Below, one piece after another: positions 5,055-35,669 of a stretch of DNA of 35,669 nt (the stretch's first letter is position 1; the number at the start of each line of letters is the position of its first letter). A model generated the notes under the pieces. It was not told where the DNA came from, did not search any database, and saw only the letters and a program-made list of their open reading frames with translations. The DNA lies in NCBI GenBank assembly GCA_005223125.1, contig NJBH01000037.1, positions 1 to 35,669 of the forward strand, read 5' to 3'. The position numbers and the translations under genes are program-made. Source of the stretch: Promethearchaeota archaeon Loki_b32 (GTDB lineage Archaea > Asgardarchaeota > Lokiarchaeia > Sigyniarchaeales > SOKP01).

Positions 5055-7415
5055 TTAAATTGAAGCGTGCTCCGTTCTTCTTATTATTTCATCCTGCAAA
5101 TCGGAACCTAAATTAATGAAATAATCACTATATCCCGCTACTCGTACAATTAAGTTTCGATATAGTTCAGGGTTAATCTGAGCAGCCCGTAAAGTATCTG
5201 CTGAAACAACATTAAATTGAATATGATGTCCATTCATTTTGAAATATACTCTTATCATATGAACCAATTTATCAATTTTCTCTTGATCTGAAAAAAAATG
5301 AGGTGCAAATTTTTGATTCAATAAGGTTCCTCCTGTTCTTAAATGATCAATTTTTCCAGCTGATTTAATCACAGCAGTTGGACCATTAATATCCATTCCT
5401 TGAACTGGAGAGATGCCTTCCGATAAAGGTGTATAGGCTTTACGCCCATCTGGAGTGGCACCTGTTACTTGACCGAAGTAAATATGAACAGTTGTAGGAA
5501 GTAGATTAATTCGATGTACTCCACCTTTAGTATTAGGTCGATTATTAATTGCATTATAAACAATTTCAAAAACTTGAGCAGTTATTAAATCAGCATAGTC
5601 ATTATCATTCCCGTATTTAGGAGTTTTATAGATTAGTTTTTGGTGAATAATATCATTTCCATCAAAATTATTATCTAAAGATTTTATTAGATCTTCTATA
5701 GATATAATATTTTTATCAAACACATTATATTTTAAAGAAGTTAGACAATCTGTGATGCTACCCATTCCCACAATTTGTATATAAGAAGTGTTATATTTTG
5801 CTCCACCATCATTATAATCCTTTCCATTTTTAATACAGTCTTCAATTAATATTGATAAGAATGGAGCGGGATTTTGAGCCCAAATACGTTCAATTATTTG
5901 ATTCCCCTTGATTTTAATGTCTACAAAATGCTTCACTTGCTTAGTATAAGCTTCAAAGAAACCATCAAAAGTTTCAAAAGTCGTAGGATCACCAGTTTCC
6001 AATCCAATTTGCTTTTTTGTTAGAGGATCGAAACCGTTATGAAGCGTTATTTCAAGAATTTTCACTAAGTTAAAATATCCTGTAAGAATATACGCTTCTT
6101 TCCCAAATGCACCAGATTCAACACATCCACTTGCTCCAGCATTGTATGCATCTATCAATGACTTTCCTTGCCTAGTTAATTCTTCAATAATGGCATCAGT
6201 GTTAAAAATTGAAGGTTGTCCAAAACCAGTTTTAATTATTTCAAGAGCTCGTTTTAAAAATTTATCTGGAGTTTTTTCACTGATTTGAACATTACTACTT
6301 GGTTGTAAAATCCGCATTTCTTCAATTACATCCAAGAGTATATAAGACATCTCATTAACTCCATTAGAACCGTCCTCTTTCAACCCTCCTATATTTATAT
6401 TACAAAAATCAGTATATGTATTGCTTTCTTCTGCTGTAACACCAACTTTGGGAGGGGCAGGTTGATTGTTAAATTTCACCCAAAAAGCTTGCAGTAATTC
6501 ATGTGCTTCTTCCCTTGTCATTTCACCATTAGCTATATCTTTTTTGTAGAATGGATATAAGTGCTGATCTAAGCGTCCTGGATTGAAAGAATCCCAGGTA
6601 TTATACTCCGTTATAACACCTAAATGAATGAACCAATAATGTTGGAGTGCCTCCCAAAAGGTTCTTGGTGCTCGTGAAGGAATATAAGTACAAATTTCTG
6701 ATATTTTCTCTAACTCTTTTTTTCTAATTGGGTCTAATTCCTTGGTAGCCAAGTGTATAGCTTCTTGTGCATGACGTTCTGCAAAAGAAATAATTGCATC
6801 TGCAGCGATATTCATCGCAGTTAACTGCTCTCTCTTATTAAATGCCTCAGGATCATTATAAAAATCTAATTTTTCTATACTTTCTTTTATTTCTTTCTTA
6901 AAATCTAAAAATCCCTTATTCCATATGTTTTTCCCACCAACTGTATGTCCAGGAGCTCTCTGTTCCATAAATTCTGTGAAAATTCCTGCTTCATATGCAT
7001 CAATCCATTCATCATCAACTTTAGAAAAAATTTTATCGCGAATAGACCTTCCTTTCCAATAAGGAATAATTATATCTTTTGTTTTTTGTCTTGTTTCCTC
7101 AGATACTTTAAAGGAAATTTTATCACGAGCATTTAAAATGTCTAAATCTTGTAAGCTGTGGCAACATACTTCTGGATATGTTGGAGTTGCCTTTGGTTCT
7201 GGACCACGTTCACCAACAATTAATTCCCCTTCATTAATGCAAATCTTTTTGTTTTCCATGAGATGCTTAAAAGCTTTTGCTCTTGCAATAGGAGCAGAAA
7301 ATTTATGAGCTGCACCATTTTTATAAAATTCTGTCAATAAAAGGGCACGTTCTAGTGAAAGATAAGGGATCAACCCTCGACTTTGAGTTCTCAATTTTTT
7401 AATTCTATCATTCAT
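5055..7415 (-). CDS. hypD: Glycyl radical enzyme, trans-4-hydroxy-L-proline dehydratase (HypD)-like
   Basis: Glycyl radical motif RVAGYS and Cys loop SGCVE; segments recalled from HypD: PTYPEVCCH, FTEFMEQRAPGHTV, FNNQPAPPKVG, SNTYTDF, LLPTT. Confidence 0.85.
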   Translation of the reverse strand: MNDRIKKLRTQSRGLIPYLSLERALLLTEFYKNGAAHKFSAPIARAKAFKHLMENKKICINEGELIVGERGPEPKATPTYPEVCCHSLQDLDILNARDKISFKVSEETRQKTKDIIIPYWKGRSIRDKIFSKVDDEWIDAYEAGIFTEFMEQRAPGHTVGGKNIWNKGFLDFKKEIKESIEKLDFYNDPEAFNKREQLTAMNIAADAIISFAERHAQEAIHLATKELDPIRKKELEKISEICTYIPSRAPRTFWEALQHYWFIHLGVITEYNTWDSFNPGRLDQHLYPFYKKDIANGEMTREEAHELLQAFWVKFNNQPAPPKVGVTAEESNTYTDFCNINIGGLKEDGSNGVNEMSYILLDVIEEMRILQPSSNVQISEKTPDKFLKRALEIIKTGFGQPSIFNTDAIIEELTRQGKSLIDAYNAGASGCVESGAFGKEAYILTGYFNLVKILEITLHNGFDPLTKKQIGLETGDPTTFETFDGFFEAYTKQVKHFVDIKIKGNQIIERIWAQNPAPFLSILIEDCIKNGKDYNDGGAKYNTSYIQIVGMGSITDCLTSLKYNVFDKNIISIEDLIKSLDNNFDGNDIIHQKLIYKTPKYGNDNDYADLITAQVFEIVYNAINNRPNTKGGVHRINLLPTTVHIYFGQVTGATPDGRKAYTPLSEGISPVQGMDINGPTAVIKSAGKIDHLRTGGTLLNQKFAPHFFSDQEKIDKLVHMIRVYFKMNGHHIQFNVVSADTLRAAQINPELYRNLIVRVAGYSDYFINLGSDLQDEIIRRTEHASI

Positions 7416-9540: not shown

Positions 9541-11154
9541 TTGAAATCACAAAATGAATTAGGAGTTCCAGTTCCGGCAAATAAACCTCTAGTAGTTCGG
9601 ACTATTAAACAAGTTACCAGGGAACAACGTGAATATGTACTTAAAAAAACAGAATACAGTATGTTTTCTTTTCCCGCAGATTTAATCTTTGTAGATTTTT
9701 TATCTGATTCTGGCTCTGGAACAATGACGGATTTTCAATGGGCTGCTTTATTCCATGGAGATGAATCTTATGGGCGCAATAAAGGATATTATGTTCTTTT
9801 GGATGCGATTAGAGATACCTTCGAAAGAGGCGATACTCCAAATAGATCTATTAATTTAATTCTTTCTGGTGAAACAGATGTAAATAAATTAATGGATGAA
9901 CTTTACGTAACTTCATTTGAGGGTGGTTTTGTAAATGGAGGAACTCATCAGTTAACCCGTCCTAATGCTTTCATTGTTCCACAAGGACGATGTGCTGAAC
10001 ATTTACTCTTCTCAACTATTGCTCCTATCTTAAAACAGAAAAATAAAGATATTATTAATTATATTCCAAATAACGGACACTTTGATACGACTGAAGCTAA
10101 TATCGTTGCTAATGGTATTCAAGCAGTAAACTTATTCTCAACAAATTTAATGGATGACTTTCCTTATGATGAAATGGATAAGAGAAATCCATTTAAAGGT
10201 AATATGGATCTTAAAGGACTTGAAGATCTGATTAAAGAAAAGGGTGTAGATTCTATTCCATTAATTTATGTTACAATTACAAATAATACGGCAGCAGGTC
10301 AACCGGTTTCAATGAAAAATATAAAAGAAGTTCATAAAATTGCAAAGAAATATGATATTCCTTTTTTCTTCGACGCTTGTCGCTTCAGTGAGAATGCAAA
10401 CTTTATAAAAGAATTCGAAGAAGGGTATAGAAATCGATCTATCCTAAGTATTGTGCAAGAAATGTTCTCATATGTTGATGGTTTTACAATTAGTTTCAAA
10501 AAAGATGGATTAGCTAATATAGGAGGGGGATTTTTCTTTCGAGATAAAGGTGTTTTTCATAAAAAATTTTCCATTGATGAGGATATTGGGATTAAATTGA
10601 AAGAAAAACAGATTTTAACTTTTGGAAATGATTCATACGGCGGAATGAGTGGCAGAGACATAATGGCTTTGGCTGCAGGGCTTTATGAAGTTGTAAAAGA
10701 ACCCTATCTCTATGAAAGAAAAATTCAAGTTAGGGAATTCGCTAGAAAGCTTGCTCAAAATGGTATTCCCATTCTGCTTCCCGCAGGGGGTCATGCGGTG
10801 TATATTGATATGGATAAATTTTTTGAGGGAACAGATATGAAGATCGATGATTTTGGAGGTGTTGGTTTTACTATTGAACTTCTGAAGCATTATGGTATTA
10901 GATCTGTTGAATTAGGACCCTTTTGTTTTGAATGGGATAAGAAAACACCTGAACAACAGAAGGGGATCCTGAATTTAGTCCGCCTTGCAATGCCTCGAAA
11001 TGTCTATAGCGCTTCACATATCGATTATGCTGTAGCCGCTATTACAGAACTTTATCACAATAAAGAAAAAATTCCAAAAGTGAAAATCTCGCGAGGAGCA
11101 GAATTACGATTGAGACATTTTCAAACAGGACTTCAACCAATCTATAAAAATTAG
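9541..11154 (+). CDS. tnaA: Tryptophanase (PLP beta-eliminating lyase)
   Basis: DFLSDSG, GDESYG, QGRCAE, HFDTT, FKGNMD, TNNTAAGQPVS, DACRF, SFKKD (PLP Lys), GGHAVY. C-terminal LRHF matches tryptophanase rather than tyrosine phenol-lyase (LRFF). TTG start. Confidence 0.85.
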   Translation: MKSQNELGVPVPANKPLVVRTIKQVTREQREYVLKKTEYSMFSFPADLIFVDFLSDSGSGTMTDFQWAALFHGDESYGRNKGYYVLLDAIRDTFERGDTPNRSINLILSGETDVNKLMDELYVTSFEGGFVNGGTHQLTRPNAFIVPQGRCAEHLLFSTIAPILKQKNKDIINYIPNNGHFDTTEANIVANGIQAVNLFSTNLMDDFPYDEMDKRNPFKGNMDLKGLEDLIKEKGVDSIPLIYVTITNNTAAGQPVSMKNIKEVHKIAKKYDIPFFFDACRFSENANFIKEFEEGYRNRSILSIVQEMFSYVDGFTISFKKDGLANIGGGFFFRDKGVFHKKFSIDEDIGIKLKEKQILTFGNDSYGGMSGRDIMALAAGLYEVVKEPYLYERKIQVREFARKLAQNGIPILLPAGGHAVYIDMDKFFEGTDMKIDDFGGVGFTIELLKHYGIRSVELGPFCFEWDKKTPEQQKGILNLVRLAMPRNVYSASHIDYAVAAITELYHNKEKIPKVKISRGAELRLRHFQTGLQPIYKN

Positions 11155-31105: not shown

Positions 31106-31390
31106 GTGACTTTTATGAGCACGGTTAGGGTTGATAAAAAACATTTAAAATTGTTGGATAAATTGATTTCTCATTTAACTTTACGAGGAAATAAAATAAG
31201 CAAGAAGAACCTTGTAGCAAAACTGATTGAGGATGCAATGATAGCTGAAGGTCTTGAAGAAAATGAAGTTTCATATTCCATAACAGATGATCACGCATGG
31301 AAAGGATTGGACGATGTTTTTGAGTTAGGTATTGAAGATTTATCGGAAAAAGTCGATGAAATTTTATATCAGTTAAATGGGGAAGAATAA
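31106..31390 (+). CDS. Putative VapB-type antitoxin
   Basis: Small protein with an RHH-like N-terminus (STVRVDKK...) and acidic tail ending DLSEKVDEILY, directly upstream of a PIN gene. Confidence 0.7.
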   Translation: MTFMSTVRVDKKHLKLLDKLISHLTLRGNKISKKNLVAKLIEDAMIAEGLEENEVSYSITDDHAWKGLDDVFELGIEDLSEKVDEILYQLNGEE

Positions 31391-31802
31391 AATGGCAGTT
31401 TTTTTAGATACAGGATTTTTATTAGCAGTTAAGAACAAGGATGATAAAAATTTCCAAATTGCTCAATCTTGGATGAGTAGGTTTCTAAAAAATGAATTCG
31501 GGGAGGTATTTACCTCTACATTAGTGTTTAATGAATTGGTGACCTTAGCATTGGTAAGAATAAAACGTCCTGATTTCGCGATAAATTTGGGAAATTATAT
31601 TTTGAAGAGTAGAAAGATAAAGATTATTAGTTTTACGGATGACGATTTTAAGAATTCTTGGGAGACCTTTCAAAAATTTAAAGAAAAAAAATTATCTTTT
31701 ACTGATAGTTCCATTTTAATTCATTGCAAACGTTTAAACTGCAATTTTTTAGCTACCTTTGATAAACACTTTAAAGGTTTAATACCCTCAAATTTAAGTT
31801 GA
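31377..31802 (+). CDS. vapC: VapC PIN-domain ribonuclease toxin (likely start ATG 31392)
   Basis: FLDTG, VFNEL, LSFTD, ATFDKHF. Confidence 0.88.
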   Translation: MGKNKMAVFLDTGFLLAVKNKDDKNFQIAQSWMSRFLKNEFGEVFTSTLVFNELVTLALVRIKRPDFAINLGNYILKSRKIKIISFTDDDFKNSWETFQKFKEKKLSFTDSSILIHCKRLNCNFLATFDKHFKGLIPSNLS

Positions 31803-32747: not shown

Positions 32748-34163
32748 TTATTCATTTAAAAGTCTATATTTTTTAAGTCCTTCTCTCATATCTGCTTGAA
32801 ATGGTCCTGGTGTTCCTTCTATAAACGCTTCAACAATATCTTTATTTTCTACAATTTCTGAAACTCTCTTTTTGGCTTTCTCTTCTGCGAGTGAAGCGAT
32901 TGCCATCCTTGCCATTTGTTGAAACTGAGGTGGTGATAATTTTATTAATTCATTGAAAATTCTTTCAGTCTCGGGATTCCAATTTAACCCGCTTGTTTTC
33001 TTCTCCTTAGGCTCAGCGGAAGTAACTCCAAACTCGCGACTTGTTATAATATCATTCATATAATTCTTTATTGAATCTACATATCGGGTAGATTCTTCCT
33101 TATCTAGAAGAACTGCCTTATTTGCCCATTCCTCACAATAATCACATTCATAACACATAGCTATACAATTCTGCTTCTTGAAAAAGTCTATAAACCCGTT
33201 CAATTTGGTATTATCAATGTATAACTTTGATTTAGATTCCTTTCCAAGGGTTTCAGTTAATTTAACATTCGGATCTTTTTGTTCTAACCCGCCAAATGAC
33301 ATAGAGAACCCCTGAATTATGTCAATAAGATTTCCCTCATATTTTCGGGAAGAAAATGCTTTAACAGAATTAGTAATCCATTGAGTAGACATTCGACGGC
33401 CAGCTATTTTAAAATCATCTATACCGATAGCTTCATAATGGGATAGATCCTCAGGGCGAACCCATCTTGCTTTAAGAACTTCTGTAGGGTTTGAAAATTT
33501 AATAATACTACAATTTAATATGCAAGTATCAACATAGTTACGTTCAAATTGTTGAAAAGTTTGAGAAGCATGACCTAGGGTGTTATAATGATAAAGTCTA
33601 AAAGGGCATTGATATAGACATCCATCAGTTAAAAGTACAATAATTTTACATTTTACTGCTTTTTGTATTTGTTCTAATGTCTTGAAATCGCGATTTAGCA
33701 TAACATCTAGAGTGATTTCATCTGCTCCAAGCATTTCATAAAACTTAGCTCTATTCACACTGTTTACGTGAGCAATTGTAGAAACACGAATTTTTAATTT
33801 AGGGAATTGTTCCTTAATGAGCTGGATCAAAAATGGGATAGTTACAGTAACACTATCTGCTCCAATATCACTAATCCATTGTAAATATTTAAGGAGCTCT
33901 TTATGATAATGTTGATCATATTCCATATTATTCATACATGGAGCATTTAATAAATAAGAAAATCCCATTTTTTTCTCATGAAGTTTTCTTATGTACTCTG
34001 CAATGTCTTCTTCTGATACTTTCTTTAATAAAAAAGAGGGGCGACCTCCCCCAACTATTGAATGGTCAGAAACACCATATAAATCAGATACAGGATACTT
34101 AGCTAATTCATCTATAAGACTTAAATCCCAATTTGTAGCTACATGTAATTTTATTGATATCAC
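32748..34163 (-). CDS. U32-family Fe-S protein (UbiU/UbiV/RlhA-related) with an extra Cys cluster and a C-terminal DUF2621-like domain
   Basis: YLLNAPC, RVSTIAHV, GCLYQC...CILNC, FKIAGR (U32 KIEGR), CIAMCYECDYC, then WNPETERIFNELIKLSPPQFQQMAR...TPGPFQ. Confidence 0.82.
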   Translation of the reverse strand: MISIKLHVATNWDLSLIDELAKYPVSDLYGVSDHSIVGGGRPSFLLKKVSEEDIAEYIRKLHEKKMGFSYLLNAPCMNNMEYDQHYHKELLKYLQWISDIGADSVTVTIPFLIQLIKEQFPKLKIRVSTIAHVNSVNRAKFYEMLGADEITLDVMLNRDFKTLEQIQKAVKCKIIVLLTDGCLYQCPFRLYHYNTLGHASQTFQQFERNYVDTCILNCSIIKFSNPTEVLKARWVRPEDLSHYEAIGIDDFKIAGRRMSTQWITNSVKAFSSRKYEGNLIDIIQGFSMSFGGLEQKDPNVKLTETLGKESKSKLYIDNTKLNGFIDFFKKQNCIAMCYECDYCEEWANKAVLLDKEESTRYVDSIKNYMNDIITSREFGVTSAEPKEKKTSGLNWNPETERIFNELIKLSPPQFQQMARMAIASLAEEKAKKRVSEIVENKDIVEAFIEGTPGPFQADMREGLKKYRLLNE

Positions 34164-34183
34164 CTTTCTGTATGCTTAATCTA

Positions 34184-34573
34184 TTATTTTTGAATAGCTT
34201 TAGCATGAGCTTTGGCATTAAGTGGCAATAACGGCGCACATGCCATAAGCTTAGTAGGATCACCTTCAACATCATATGTTCCAGCCATTGTTGCTTCAAT
34301 CGGATTAGTTTCTCCCGAATTAACTTTTTTAATAGTTTCAAAACTCGTCTTATGAATAATTTTTGGAACATCTGGCCCATTATAATCACCCATTCCCCAA
34401 CTCATCTTATCTTCTTCGATCGATTGCCAATAGTCCATCTCAGGACGATCATTGATTTTGTATTGAAAGACTAAAGGTGCGATAGGTTGTAGTAGAGTTG
34501 GTAAGTCGGGTAGGTCATTATAGGCTTTCATGAAACTATCAAGATATGCTTCCCATTCATCCTTTGTGTCCAT
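34184..34573 (-). CDS. SCP2 sterol/lipid-carrier domain protein (UbiT/UbiJ-like fold)
   Basis: GETNPIEATMAGTYDVEGD matches the SCP2 G-x-x-N-P-x-x-A-x-M-x-G-x-x-x-V-x-G-D signature; GGAGGT SD upstream. Confidence 0.78.
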   Translation of the reverse strand: MDTKDEWEAYLDSFMKAYNDLPDLPTLLQPIAPLVFQYKINDRPEMDYWQSIEEDKMSWGMGDYNGPDVPKIIHKTSFETIKKVNSGETNPIEATMAGTYDVEGDPTKLMACAPLLPLNAKAHAKAIQK

Positions 34574-34648
34574 TTTTATGTTCTACCTCCTTTTTTTTTT
34601 AATTATATTATTTTTATTTACCATTTTTAGATCGTTATTAATTAAAAT

Positions 34649-35668
34649 TTATTTATAAGATTCAAGTCCAGCTTTAGCACCCATTAACAAAAAATCAACC
34701 ATGGTTCCATTATAATCATTTTCAATCTTGTAGTAAAGTCCGTTAGGTGTAAAAGTAACACCATATATGAATTTATGAATGTCACTTTGAAATGGAGATC
34801 CTTCAATGAATTTTTTCATCAATGGATGAAAGTGCATAGGAACTTCTTTGGCATCACGACATGCCATCCCAAAGCATAGACGTTCGATCTTTTCTGAATC
34901 CCAACTAAAACTATAATTGAGATGTACTGCATTACAACAATATTCCATCACTTCTTTAGATGCTACTTCAAAATCCAAATCTTCTACAAGCCTTCTGCAA
35001 TTCTCGTAAGTAGCTGTTGATGGATTCTTTAACATGAAATATATGTTGGTTGTATTATGCGAAAAATCAAAAGCGAATAGCGCTAATGTAGTTAATCCAT
35101 GTTTTTTGAAGTAGCTTTCATAGTTTTTAATACTTTCTGGAATGTATTTCATAGAAAAAAGGGGATCGATTGACCCAGGTATGATAAAAGGCCATATCTT
35201 TGAGAACCCTTTTCTCGCATCAATATCAACTCCATAACCCATGATATCAAAAACTTCCAATGCTTCTACTATCATTTTATGAATAGGATGACCATTTTTT
35301 TTGATTAAACCTTCATTAAGAGCAGTAATATACGGATCAGGATTATGGGGTATCATCATTTCTACATATCTTACTGATACATCTCTTCTTTCAACTGGCT
35401 TAGTTGTGGTTCTAATTGAAAGAGATGAACCAGAATAGAATTTTTCATAAGCATTAAGCGCTTTCCATATGGCTTCTTCATTAAAATCAACATCTGTAAG
35501 TTCACATAGTGTTTGAATATCTTTAACCATTTGATTAAGATTATTATTAAGCTTGAAATCAGAATTTACTTTTGGTAAATATAAATCAACATCAACCCCC
35601 AGTGCCTTTAGGTCTTCAATCATTGTTGTTTGAAAAGCTGGTGGTGTGACTTCAAACAGCGCAACAAC
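34649..35668 (-). CDS. ABBA-family aromatic prenyltransferase (CloQ/NphB-type), 5'-truncated by the window edge
   Basis: YGVDIDARKGFSKIWPF, FAFDFSHNTTNIYF, IERLCF, YYKIENDY resemble PT-barrel strands. The frame stays open upstream of 35623 to the edge (VVALFEVTPPAFQTT-M). Confidence 0.78.
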   Translation of the reverse strand, partial: VVALFEVTPPAFQTTMIEDLKALGVDVDLYLPKVNSDFKLNNNLNQMVKDIQTLCELTDVDFNEEAIWKALNAYEKFYSGSSLSIRTTTKPVERRDVSVRYVEMMIPHNPDPYITALNEGLIKKNGHPIHKMIVEALEVFDIMGYGVDIDARKGFSKIWPFIIPGSIDPLFSMKYIPESIKNYESYFKKHGLTTLALFAFDFSHNTTNIYFMLKNPSTATYENCRRLVEDLDFEVASKEVMEYCCNAVHLNYSFSWDSEKIERLCFGMACRDAKEVPMHFHPLMKKFIEGSPFQSDIHKFIYGVTFTPNGLYYKIENDYNGTMVDFLLMGAKAGLESYK

Positions 35669-35669
35669 G

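Follow-up and report, generated by a model that had tools for sequence, protein, structure and literature searches.

What does an anaerobic archaeon make with a soluble ABBA prenyltransferase, an SCP2 lipid carrier and a U32-family iron-sulfur (Fe-S) protein encoded side by side? This question is raised by three genes at one end of contig NJBH01000037.1 (C63) of Promethearchaeota archaeon Loki_b32, a member of the Lokiarchaeia whose 4.13-Mb genome is 95.5% complete; the whole contig of 35,669 nt was analysed and is called the window here. A first-pass annotation had read the trio as an oxygen-independent route to a prenylated aromatic compound or quinone, modelled on ubiquinone synthesis with UbiT, UbiU and UbiV, and this interpretation is partly supported by the present analysis. 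We found that the trio is the 3' end of a larger operon. With a probability of about 0.55, the operon tailors an undescribed membrane lipid without O2, through prenylation, radical methylation, radical C-C chemistry and U32 oxygenation, served by SCP2; the product is probably not a respiratory quinone.

The gene trio and the operon to which it belongs

The possibility that the operon continues beyond the window, raised in the first-pass annotation, proved correct. It runs on upstream in contig C9 of the same genome, which ends within a B12 radical S-adenosylmethionine (SAM) gene; before this gene lie two SPASM radical-SAM genes, a leader open reading frame (ORF) of 232 aa and two further B12 radical-SAM genes. 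The operon is intact in two nearly identical public contigs (L039 and L040) that span the junction of C9 and C63, and the stretch missing between the two is 220-226 bp. The operon consists of the leader ORF, two SPASM radical-SAM enzymes, a B12 radical-SAM enzyme, the prenyltransferase, SCP2 and U32, and three to five radical-SAM enzymes belong to the same unit as the trio. The simple scheme of three steps first proposed (prenylation, holding by SCP2 and hydroxylation by U32) was not upheld, because it omits these enzymes and because U32 and SCP2 persist without the prenyltransferase, as described below. The best Protein Data Bank (PDB) match of one SPASM enzyme was GDGT-MAS (7TOL), a weak match with E 3.5e-13, and the NCBIfam scores of the radical-SAM enzymes were all under the cut-offs (Tes, 61/450; TIGR04072, 276/360; TIGR04190, 273/500; AhbD, 138/500).

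The gene neighbourhood was also found to be conserved. At 29 genome loci with the prenyltransferase, an SCP2 domain was present in 27, U32 in 26 and both in 25. B12 radical-SAM genes were found at 26 of these loci, SPASM radical-SAM genes at 24 and the leader at 23, and most of the missing genes fall on short contigs. The exact order prenyltransferase-SCP2-U32 was kept at 10 of the 29. Since SCP2 and U32 accompany the prenyltransferase this often, the linkage of the trio is not due to chance.

In the first-pass annotation, three minus-strand ORFs were drawn at 34649-35623 (prenyltransferase), 34184-34573 (SCP2) and 32748-34163 (U32), with intergenic gaps of 75 and 20 bp. The positions and gaps were confirmed as drawn, and the family assignments were borne out by Pfam matches above the cut-offs (PTase_Orf2, E 6.6e-50; SCP2, E 2.3e-4; Peptidase_U32, E 6.5e-14), whereas two gene starts had to be revised. 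The reading frame of the prenyltransferase stays open as far as the edge of the contig, the ATG at 35623 is internal and 51 N-terminal residues are missing; full-length relatives, which carry a DUF2621-like domain at the N-terminus, have 390 aa, and one of them (P0001) is 98% identical. The U32 gene most likely starts at a non-canonical ATA located 5 nt after a GGTGA site, and the true SCP2-U32 gap is then 29 bp. Its orthologues start with ATA, ATT, ATC, ATG, GTG or GTT, and at five loci (L003, L004, L010, L030 and L065) the codon directly before the ATA or ATT start is an in-frame stop. Because ATA, ATT or ATC starts are used in most Lokiarchaeia, gene callers misplace the start of this gene. 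Low translation may be an effect of such starts. The two RNA runs examined gave no cover and hence have no bearing on expression.

Table 1 Coordinates of the trio and of its parts in the window
Feature	Coordinates	Strand	Remarks
ABBA (NphB/AmbP-type) prenyltransferase	34649..35669	-	5' end cut by contig edge; residues 52-390 of 390 aa
PT-barrel domain of prenyltransferase	34688..35539	-	AmbP1-equivalent residues kept
C-terminal third of DUF2621/PCP_red-like helical tag, prenyltransferase N-terminus	35570..35668	-	profile A2 E 5.8e-9
Stand-alone SCP2 lipid-carrier protein, 129 aa	34184..34573	-	Pfam PF02036
Most likely U32 start: GGTGA Shine-Dalgarno site (34164-34160) and ATA (34154-34152)	34152..34164	-	46 upstream regions compared
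U32-family Fe-S protein, uncharacterised clade, 468 aa	32748..34154	-	Pfam PF01136, conservation, tree, BLAST
DUF2621/PCP_red-like helical tag, U32 C-terminus	32751..32987	-	profile A2 E 5.7e-27; Pfam DUF2621 E 1.6e-4

Other genes in the window were noted. A small putative antitoxin gene and a PIN-domain gene form a VapBC-like pair at 31106-31802, which is probably a recent insertion because it is missing from the 92-95% identical contig L040. The trans-4-hydroxy-L-proline dehydratase encoded at 5055-7415 (minus strand), a glycyl-radical enzyme scoring above its NCBIfam cut-off, is unrelated to the cluster. The gene at 9541-11154 (plus strand) codes for a member of the tryptophanase/tyrosine phenol-lyase family that contains a large insertion. 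This gene was considered as the source of the prenyl acceptor and set aside; it lies 21 kb off and outside the conserved neighbourhood.

The encoded proteins and their common tag

An 80-aa tag resembling DUF2621 and PCP_red was found to be shared by four enzymes of the operon (the two SPASM enzymes, the prenyltransferase and U32), and no other protein encoded in the genome carries it. Our counts for the class cover 161 Lokiarchaeia genomes, which are mostly incomplete, so that absence means not found among those searched. The tag was present in 47 of them, comprising the 45 that carry this U32, plus two fragments. Its fold has four helices, and fold searches assigned it to no family clearly: the best Z was 8.1 to the AAA+ lid of BchI, with 6.0 to PCP_red (2L09). 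A Foldseek search returned only histone folds at E > 0.2, and a PDB sequence search with the tag gave no match. Complex prediction of the tag homodimer scored 0.27 against a mark of 0.42, which gave no verdict and was not used as support. We infer that the tag may serve as a docking or substrate-binding module.

The SCP2 protein scored 21.9 bits against a Pfam cut-off of 21.3, and its profile matched the SCP2 structures 3BN8 and 3CNU at E ~0.006; these values are marginal and consistent. In relatives, SCP2 occurs in fusions with the prenyltransferase (at either end), with U32 or with a SPASM radical-SAM enzyme (P0060, P0104, P0121, L034 and L031), and many loci carry an additional degenerate 383-aa U32 plus a 683-aa U32-tag-SCP2 fusion. 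The fusions to three enzyme types are the best evidence suggesting one common hydrophobic substrate. A truncated tag-SCP2 fusion of 159 aa was observed in genome G214 (L065:11898-12377), where U32 is intact; this remnant is apparently the scar of a deletion that took the SPASM and prenyltransferase genes.

The prenyltransferase scored 170.6 bits against a cut-off of 22 for Pfam PF11468, and its best PDB matches were AmbP3, AmbP1 and the phenazine enzyme EpzP, the last ranking fourth. The PT-barrel fold expected from the first-pass annotation was recovered by structure prediction: the AlphaFold2 model (pLDDT 94) showed a ten-stranded PT barrel, and Foldseek aligned it with AmbP3 at E 1e-28 with a TM of 0.93 by target length and a root-mean-square deviation of 2.1 Å over 291 columns. 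When compared with the list of diphosphate residues of AmbP1 (PMC6632223), seven of the eight were retained, namely R46, K117, N168, Y170, R223, Y276 and K278, which correspond to R137, K208, N259, Y261, R314, Y363 and K365 (390-aa numbering). The cation shield W119 corresponds to W210. The position of AmbP1 Y227 is Gly and varies in most family members, and that of E209 is His; because of these two replacements, the acceptor need not be indole. As modelled, the protein is a true ABBA barrel with an intact diphosphate site, and catalysis is likely in view of the barrel and the kept residues.

This family was found in 32 of 400 Asgard genomes, all 32 within Lokiarchaeia, and in 6 of 53 congeners. 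In a quick tree, the group containing the window's enzyme (SH-aLRT 96) was sister to tagged bacterial enzymes, including those of Deltaproteobacteria, and the Asgard prenyltransferases with a C-terminal tag were placed apart from it. The tagged bacterial enzymes are encoded singly, in pairs or adjoining an isopentenyl diphosphate (IPP) isomerase gene. In anaerobic bacteria, such single genes or tandem pairs were observed at L060:10001-11716, L099:710-3699 and L098:8647-11158, and in the cultured Acetivibrio clariflavus the neighbouring NUDIX gene encodes a type 1 IPP isomerase. These bacteria offer a tractable model for the tag.

The U32 protein scored 52.2 bits against a Pfam cut-off of 22.4 and keeps the conserved cysteines for a predicted 4Fe-4S cluster: the conserved positions are C73, C179-x3-C183, H189 and C215, with a C-terminal C330-x3-C334-x2-C337-x2-C340, and C73, C179, C183 and C215 reach 99-100% in all three Asgard types. 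The cysteine motifs of UbiU (CX6CX16CX38C), UbiV (CXnCX12CX3C) and TrhP/RlhA (CX6CX15CX3C) did not fit this protein. NCBIfam gave 12.7 bits for UbiU against 440, and the best match, TrhP, reached 26 against 534; BLAST gave E 0.2 with Escherichia coli UbiU and no match to UbiV. In the tree, the clade was separated from UbiU, UbiV (a long branch), TrhP and RlhA at 99/99, and the second U32 of the genome (on C18) grouped with RlhA. Judged from sequence, the protein is by descent neither a Ubi nor an RNA enzyme. Grouping with tRNA/rRNA hydroxylases, which had been named as a possible refutation, was thus not seen, and the parallel with UbiT/UbiU/UbiV was not supported as homology. For SCP2, hhalign against the single E. 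coli UbiT sequence gave a probability of 0.7% and E 0.08. A metagenome scan with a single divergent U32 as the query found nothing.

In E. coli, U32 hydroxylations use prephenate as the oxygen donor (PMC10990095). Prephenate was expected to be available, and indeed chorismate synthase and mutase are encoded in this genome; chorismate synthase occurs in 151 of the 161 class genomes, so this near-universal pathway is non-discriminating. Given the E. coli enzymes, the pathway and the bacterial neighbours of the clade, prephenate-dependent oxygen insertion on an isoprenoid-bearing molecule is plausible for this U32. The ADH synthase gene beside U32 was tried as a link to prephenate supply and rejected, since it is a core gene (123/135 genomes) and its nadB-ADHS-S8 backbone occurs also without the cluster.

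Bacterial U32 proteins of the same clade were 32-36% identical (E 1e-68 to 1e-91). Four of them (L207, L210, L211 and L213, from bacterial genomes G403, G424, G412 and G460) lie in operons with the order farnesyl diphosphate synthase, chorismate mutase/DAHP synthase, U32, (GGR-like) and oxidosqualene cyclase, and the cyclase carries the DCTAE motif. No squalene epoxidase family match was obtained in the five genomes with a U32-cyclase operon, and no description of this operon was found in the literature searched. The operon is a candidate for O2-independent squalene oxygenation. At L186, the clade U32 lies near carotenoid and glycosyltransferase genes. At both L185 and L186 it follows MMPL/RND, LolA-like and DUF1302-like genes (read by eye), near a glycosyltransferase and a CrtI-family gene on contigs with chelatase-like genes; carotenoid or quinone oxygenation in anoxygenic phototrophs is possible for these two. 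On the Bacillus wiedmannii plasmid CP024685 (L084:10643-21288), a clade U32 is accompanied by aminodeoxychorismate synthase and mutase, two ATP-grasp genes, DAHP synthase and an MFS transporter.

Nested distribution, lipid module and leader

The genes of the cluster showed a nested distribution in the class. The CDP-alcohol phosphotransferase was found in 64 genomes, U32 in 45, the leader in 42, and the SPASM enzyme and the prenyltransferase in 32 each. U32 was present in 31 of the 32 prenyltransferase genomes, and 14 U32 genomes were without the prenyltransferase. Since U32 and SCP2 are kept intact without it in the near-complete genomes G024 (100% complete) and G214 (98%), the prenyltransferase is regarded as an add-on to an older U32 module.

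The CDP-alcohol phosphotransferase lies beside the cluster in many loci, together with GT2 glycosyltransferase, LuxE, sulfotransferase and acetyltransferase genes. In family f1, it was found in 34 of 36 U32 genomes versus 26 of 99 others, a comparison among non-independent kin for which no P value is given. In genomes without the prenyltransferase and in deeper families, U32 adjoins the leader, B12 radical SAM, CDP-alcohol phosphotransferase, GT2, LuxE and, once, LuxC. A tagged U32 gene was also observed to be followed by an adenylating enzyme gene in G059 (L076:7086-9772; EhpF-like by eye, no NCBIfam match) and by a LuxE-LuxC pair in G038 (L069:13964-18180), and these neighbours suggest carboxylic acid reduction in the same pathway. 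The CDP-alcohol phosphotransferase and LuxE of the present genome are encoded on C36 (G000:C36:110700-133000) with three more B12 radical-SAM genes nearby, which is likely its base lipid module.

One type of leader ORF heads both kinds of operon, the prenyltransferase cluster and the lipid module. Taken together, the nesting and the common leader point to the progressive decoration of a polar membrane lipid. The leader of this genome (L043:4323-5021, minus strand; corresponding to G000:C9) is one of 61 copies in 42 of the 161 genomes and gave no Pfam match. A conserved, membrane-like N-terminus of ~110 aa is followed by a ~130-codon tail with a ratio of nonsynonymous to synonymous polymorphism (pN/pS) of about 0.7-1.1 in close pairs. 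This tail is near-neutral yet open, with 0 stops versus 10-15 expected per locus, and frames of 219-352 aa were seen in 59 of 61 unbiased matches. The ORF often ends on the ribosome-binding site of the next gene, and a weak (Y/H)P motif lies some 15-20 residues ahead of this end. We take it to resemble arrest leaders of the MifM/VemP type.

Proposed function and comparison with known systems

From the gene identities, the linkage, the common tag, the SCP2 fusions and the nested distribution, we infer the chemistry and a lipid product as follows. The wider module, with a LuxE-like acyl activator, a GT2 glycosyltransferase and a CDP-alcohol phosphotransferase, would build a glyco- or phospholipid. 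SCP2 would hold the hydrophobic intermediate and hand it among the tagged enzymes, akin to UbiJ/UbiT in ubiquinone synthesis. The ABBA enzyme would prenylate an electron-rich acceptor, probably an aromatic one, with a C5-C20 group, the B12 radical-SAM enzymes would C-methylate this acceptor, and the SPASM enzymes would form C-C bonds or decarboxylate. U32 would insert oxygen, probably from prephenate, on the ring or the isoprenoid chain, and the product may be an amphiphile that tunes the membrane.

Several points weigh against this lipid-tailoring proposal. No gene for an aromatic acceptor was found within the cluster, and the neighbouring ADH synthase is a backbone gene, which genomes that lack the cluster have at this site as well. 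The link to the lipid module rests on co-location, the common leader and nesting among kin; in this genome the module lies on another contig, and it is also present in 26 f1 genomes without U32. LuxE acts on fatty acids as well as on aryl acids. Furthermore, the closest tagged prenyltransferases of bacteria stand alone or by an IPP isomerase, which suggests short C5 donors and small molecules.

One alternative is a meroterpenoid cluster making a diffusible antimicrobial or signal. All characterised ABBA enzymes serve secondary metabolism (PMC7253389), the cluster is patchy and resembles an island at a backbone site with variable gene content and copy number, and the Bacillus plasmid U32 lies in a p-aminophenylalanine-type cluster with its MFS transporter. 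However, neither a conserved exporter nor a scaffold synthase was found in the Asgard clusters examined, SCP2 is nearly always there and often fused, and the linked genes make lipid head groups. We consider a secondary metabolite unlikely.

A membrane electron carrier, either a quinone or a methanophenazine-like compound, would be reached by soluble prenylation, methylation and U32 hydroxylation. Ubiquinone synthesis combines the same chemistry with an SCP2 carrier (PMC6747719), and the occurrence of a tagged U32-SCP2 fusion together with a partner U32 is reminiscent of fused UbiT-UbiU proteins and of the pairing of UbiU with UbiV. The rank of EpzP among the PDB matches and an FAD oxidase/CCG-domain pair adjoining the cluster in L031, L067 and L133 are also consistent with such a carrier. 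Nevertheless, the NarI/HdrE, NrfD and SdhC membrane subunits (the only three quinone-using families searched) and MqnA/D were not found in the 95.5%-complete genome, and the prenyltransferase is restricted to 32 of the 161 class genomes. The genome has no 4-hydroxybenzoate-type UbiA: of its three UbiA-family genes above the Pfam cut-off, the two scored by NCBIfam resemble DGGGP synthase and decaprenyl-phosphate phosphoribosyltransferase, and ubiA_proteo gave 58/275. Beyond the family level, U32 is not a homologue of UbiU/V and SCP2 is not recognisably one of UbiT, and a polar head group is indicated by the linkage of GT2 and CDP-alcohol phosphotransferase. Energy conservation in Lokiarchaeales has been reconstructed without a quinone-reducing complex I (10.1101/2024.07.04.601786). 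The quinone reading of the first-pass annotation is weakened by the patchy distribution and because no quinone-reactive cytochrome b families were found in the genome among those searched, and we regard an electron carrier as quite unlikely.

A further alternative is a pathway resembling that of peptides made on ribosomes and modified after translation (RiPPs), with the leader ORF as the substrate and the tag as the substrate-recognition element. SPASM and B12 radical-SAM enzymes often modify peptides, one domain across several tailoring enzymes is the pattern of RiPP recognition elements, and the leader combines a conserved N-terminus with a hypervariable tail that is always open. This is very improbable: the tag is a four-helix domain like the AAA lid and PCP_red, not a PqqD winged helix, the nearly neutral tail lacks a conserved core motif, operons without radical-SAM genes are headed by the leader too, and SCP2 and NphB-type barrels handle small lipophilic molecules. 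That U32 is a tRNA or rRNA hydroxylase with incidental neighbours is hardly credible, for although TrhP is its best NCBIfam match, it lies far below the cut-off and outside the TrhP/RlhA/UbiU clade, the genome's other U32 groups with RlhA, and U32 bears the operon tag and, in relatives, SCP2. The remaining probability belongs to unforeseen chemistry.

The lipid-tailoring proposal can be drawn further, in a form that we hold to be rather doubtful as a whole. The product might be a prenylated, methylated and oxygenated aromatic or polycyclic lipid that acts as a sterol or hopanoid surrogate, made by a complex held by the tags and served by SCP2. U32 might use prephenate to oxygenate isoprenoids, a reaction that its sister proteins in bacteria may carry out on squalene, and the membrane-inserted leader might sense the membrane state and set expression.

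Each domain family is known, whereas no description of the combination, the U32 clade or the product was found in the literature searched, outside which most subscription journals lie; the first-pass annotation had likewise known of no such pathway. One SCP2 of MK-D1, with no lipid gene cluster, is mentioned in a preprint that deals with lipid transfer in Asgard archaea. These findings point to a lipid not described so far in close relatives of eukaryotes, with a defined and expressible gene set, and the cluster is a possible biomarker for a subset of Lokiarchaeia. They widen the range of ABBA prenyltransferases, which covered secondary metabolism in bacteria and fungi, to archaea, and they identify an uncharacterised clade of U32 proteins with ties to isoprenoid chemistry. 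If this clade takes oxygen from prephenate, O2-independent terpenoid oxygenation, with a possible substitute for squalene epoxidase, becomes directly testable, and this would bear on how sterol-like molecules were made before or without O2.

In comparison with known systems, the operon resembles UbiT/UbiU/UbiV (PMC6747719) in layout and is not a member of that system. Both combine an SCP2 carrier with U32 Fe-S protein(s) on a prenylated hydrophobic substrate, established there and proposed here, and both show SCP2-U32 fusions and paired U32 genes, the latter in many relatives of this cluster. On the other hand, the present U32 belongs to another clade with other cysteine spacing and an extra C-terminal four-cysteine group, SCP2 is not recognisably UbiT, a soluble ABBA enzyme stands for UbiA and radical-SAM enzymes for UbiE/UbiG, the enzymes carry a common tag, and quinone-using enzymes were not found.

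The prenyltransferase shares with AmbP1 and AmbP3/FamD1 (hapalindole) and EpzP (phenazine), ABBA prenyltransferases of Pfam PF11468, the PT barrel, the diphosphate residues and the W119 cation shield. It keeps R46 of AmbP1, which the cited review finds only in AmbP1 and AmbP3. It differs in its ~27-30% identity to the AmbP enzymes and EpzP, its N-terminal DUF2621-like tag and its archaeal, anaerobic host, and AmbP3 E207 (AmbP1 E209), which binds the indole NH, is replaced by His.

Tes/GDGT-MAS, Gms, GrsAB and HpnJ/HpnR, which tailor archaeal and hopanoid lipids, carry out O2-independent C-C coupling and methylation of isoprenoid lipids with SPASM and B12 radical-SAM enzymes. The operon resembles these lipid-tailoring systems in its SPASM and B12 enzymes, whereas they are not known to use an ABBA enzyme or U32. 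Finally, the bacterial chorismate mutase-U32-oxidosqualene cyclase operons contain a U32 of the same clade (32% identical over 389 aa) in an isoprenoid context. Their U32 proteins lack the tag and form a separate branch of the clade, and the Asgard operon has neither the cyclase nor the chorismate mutase.

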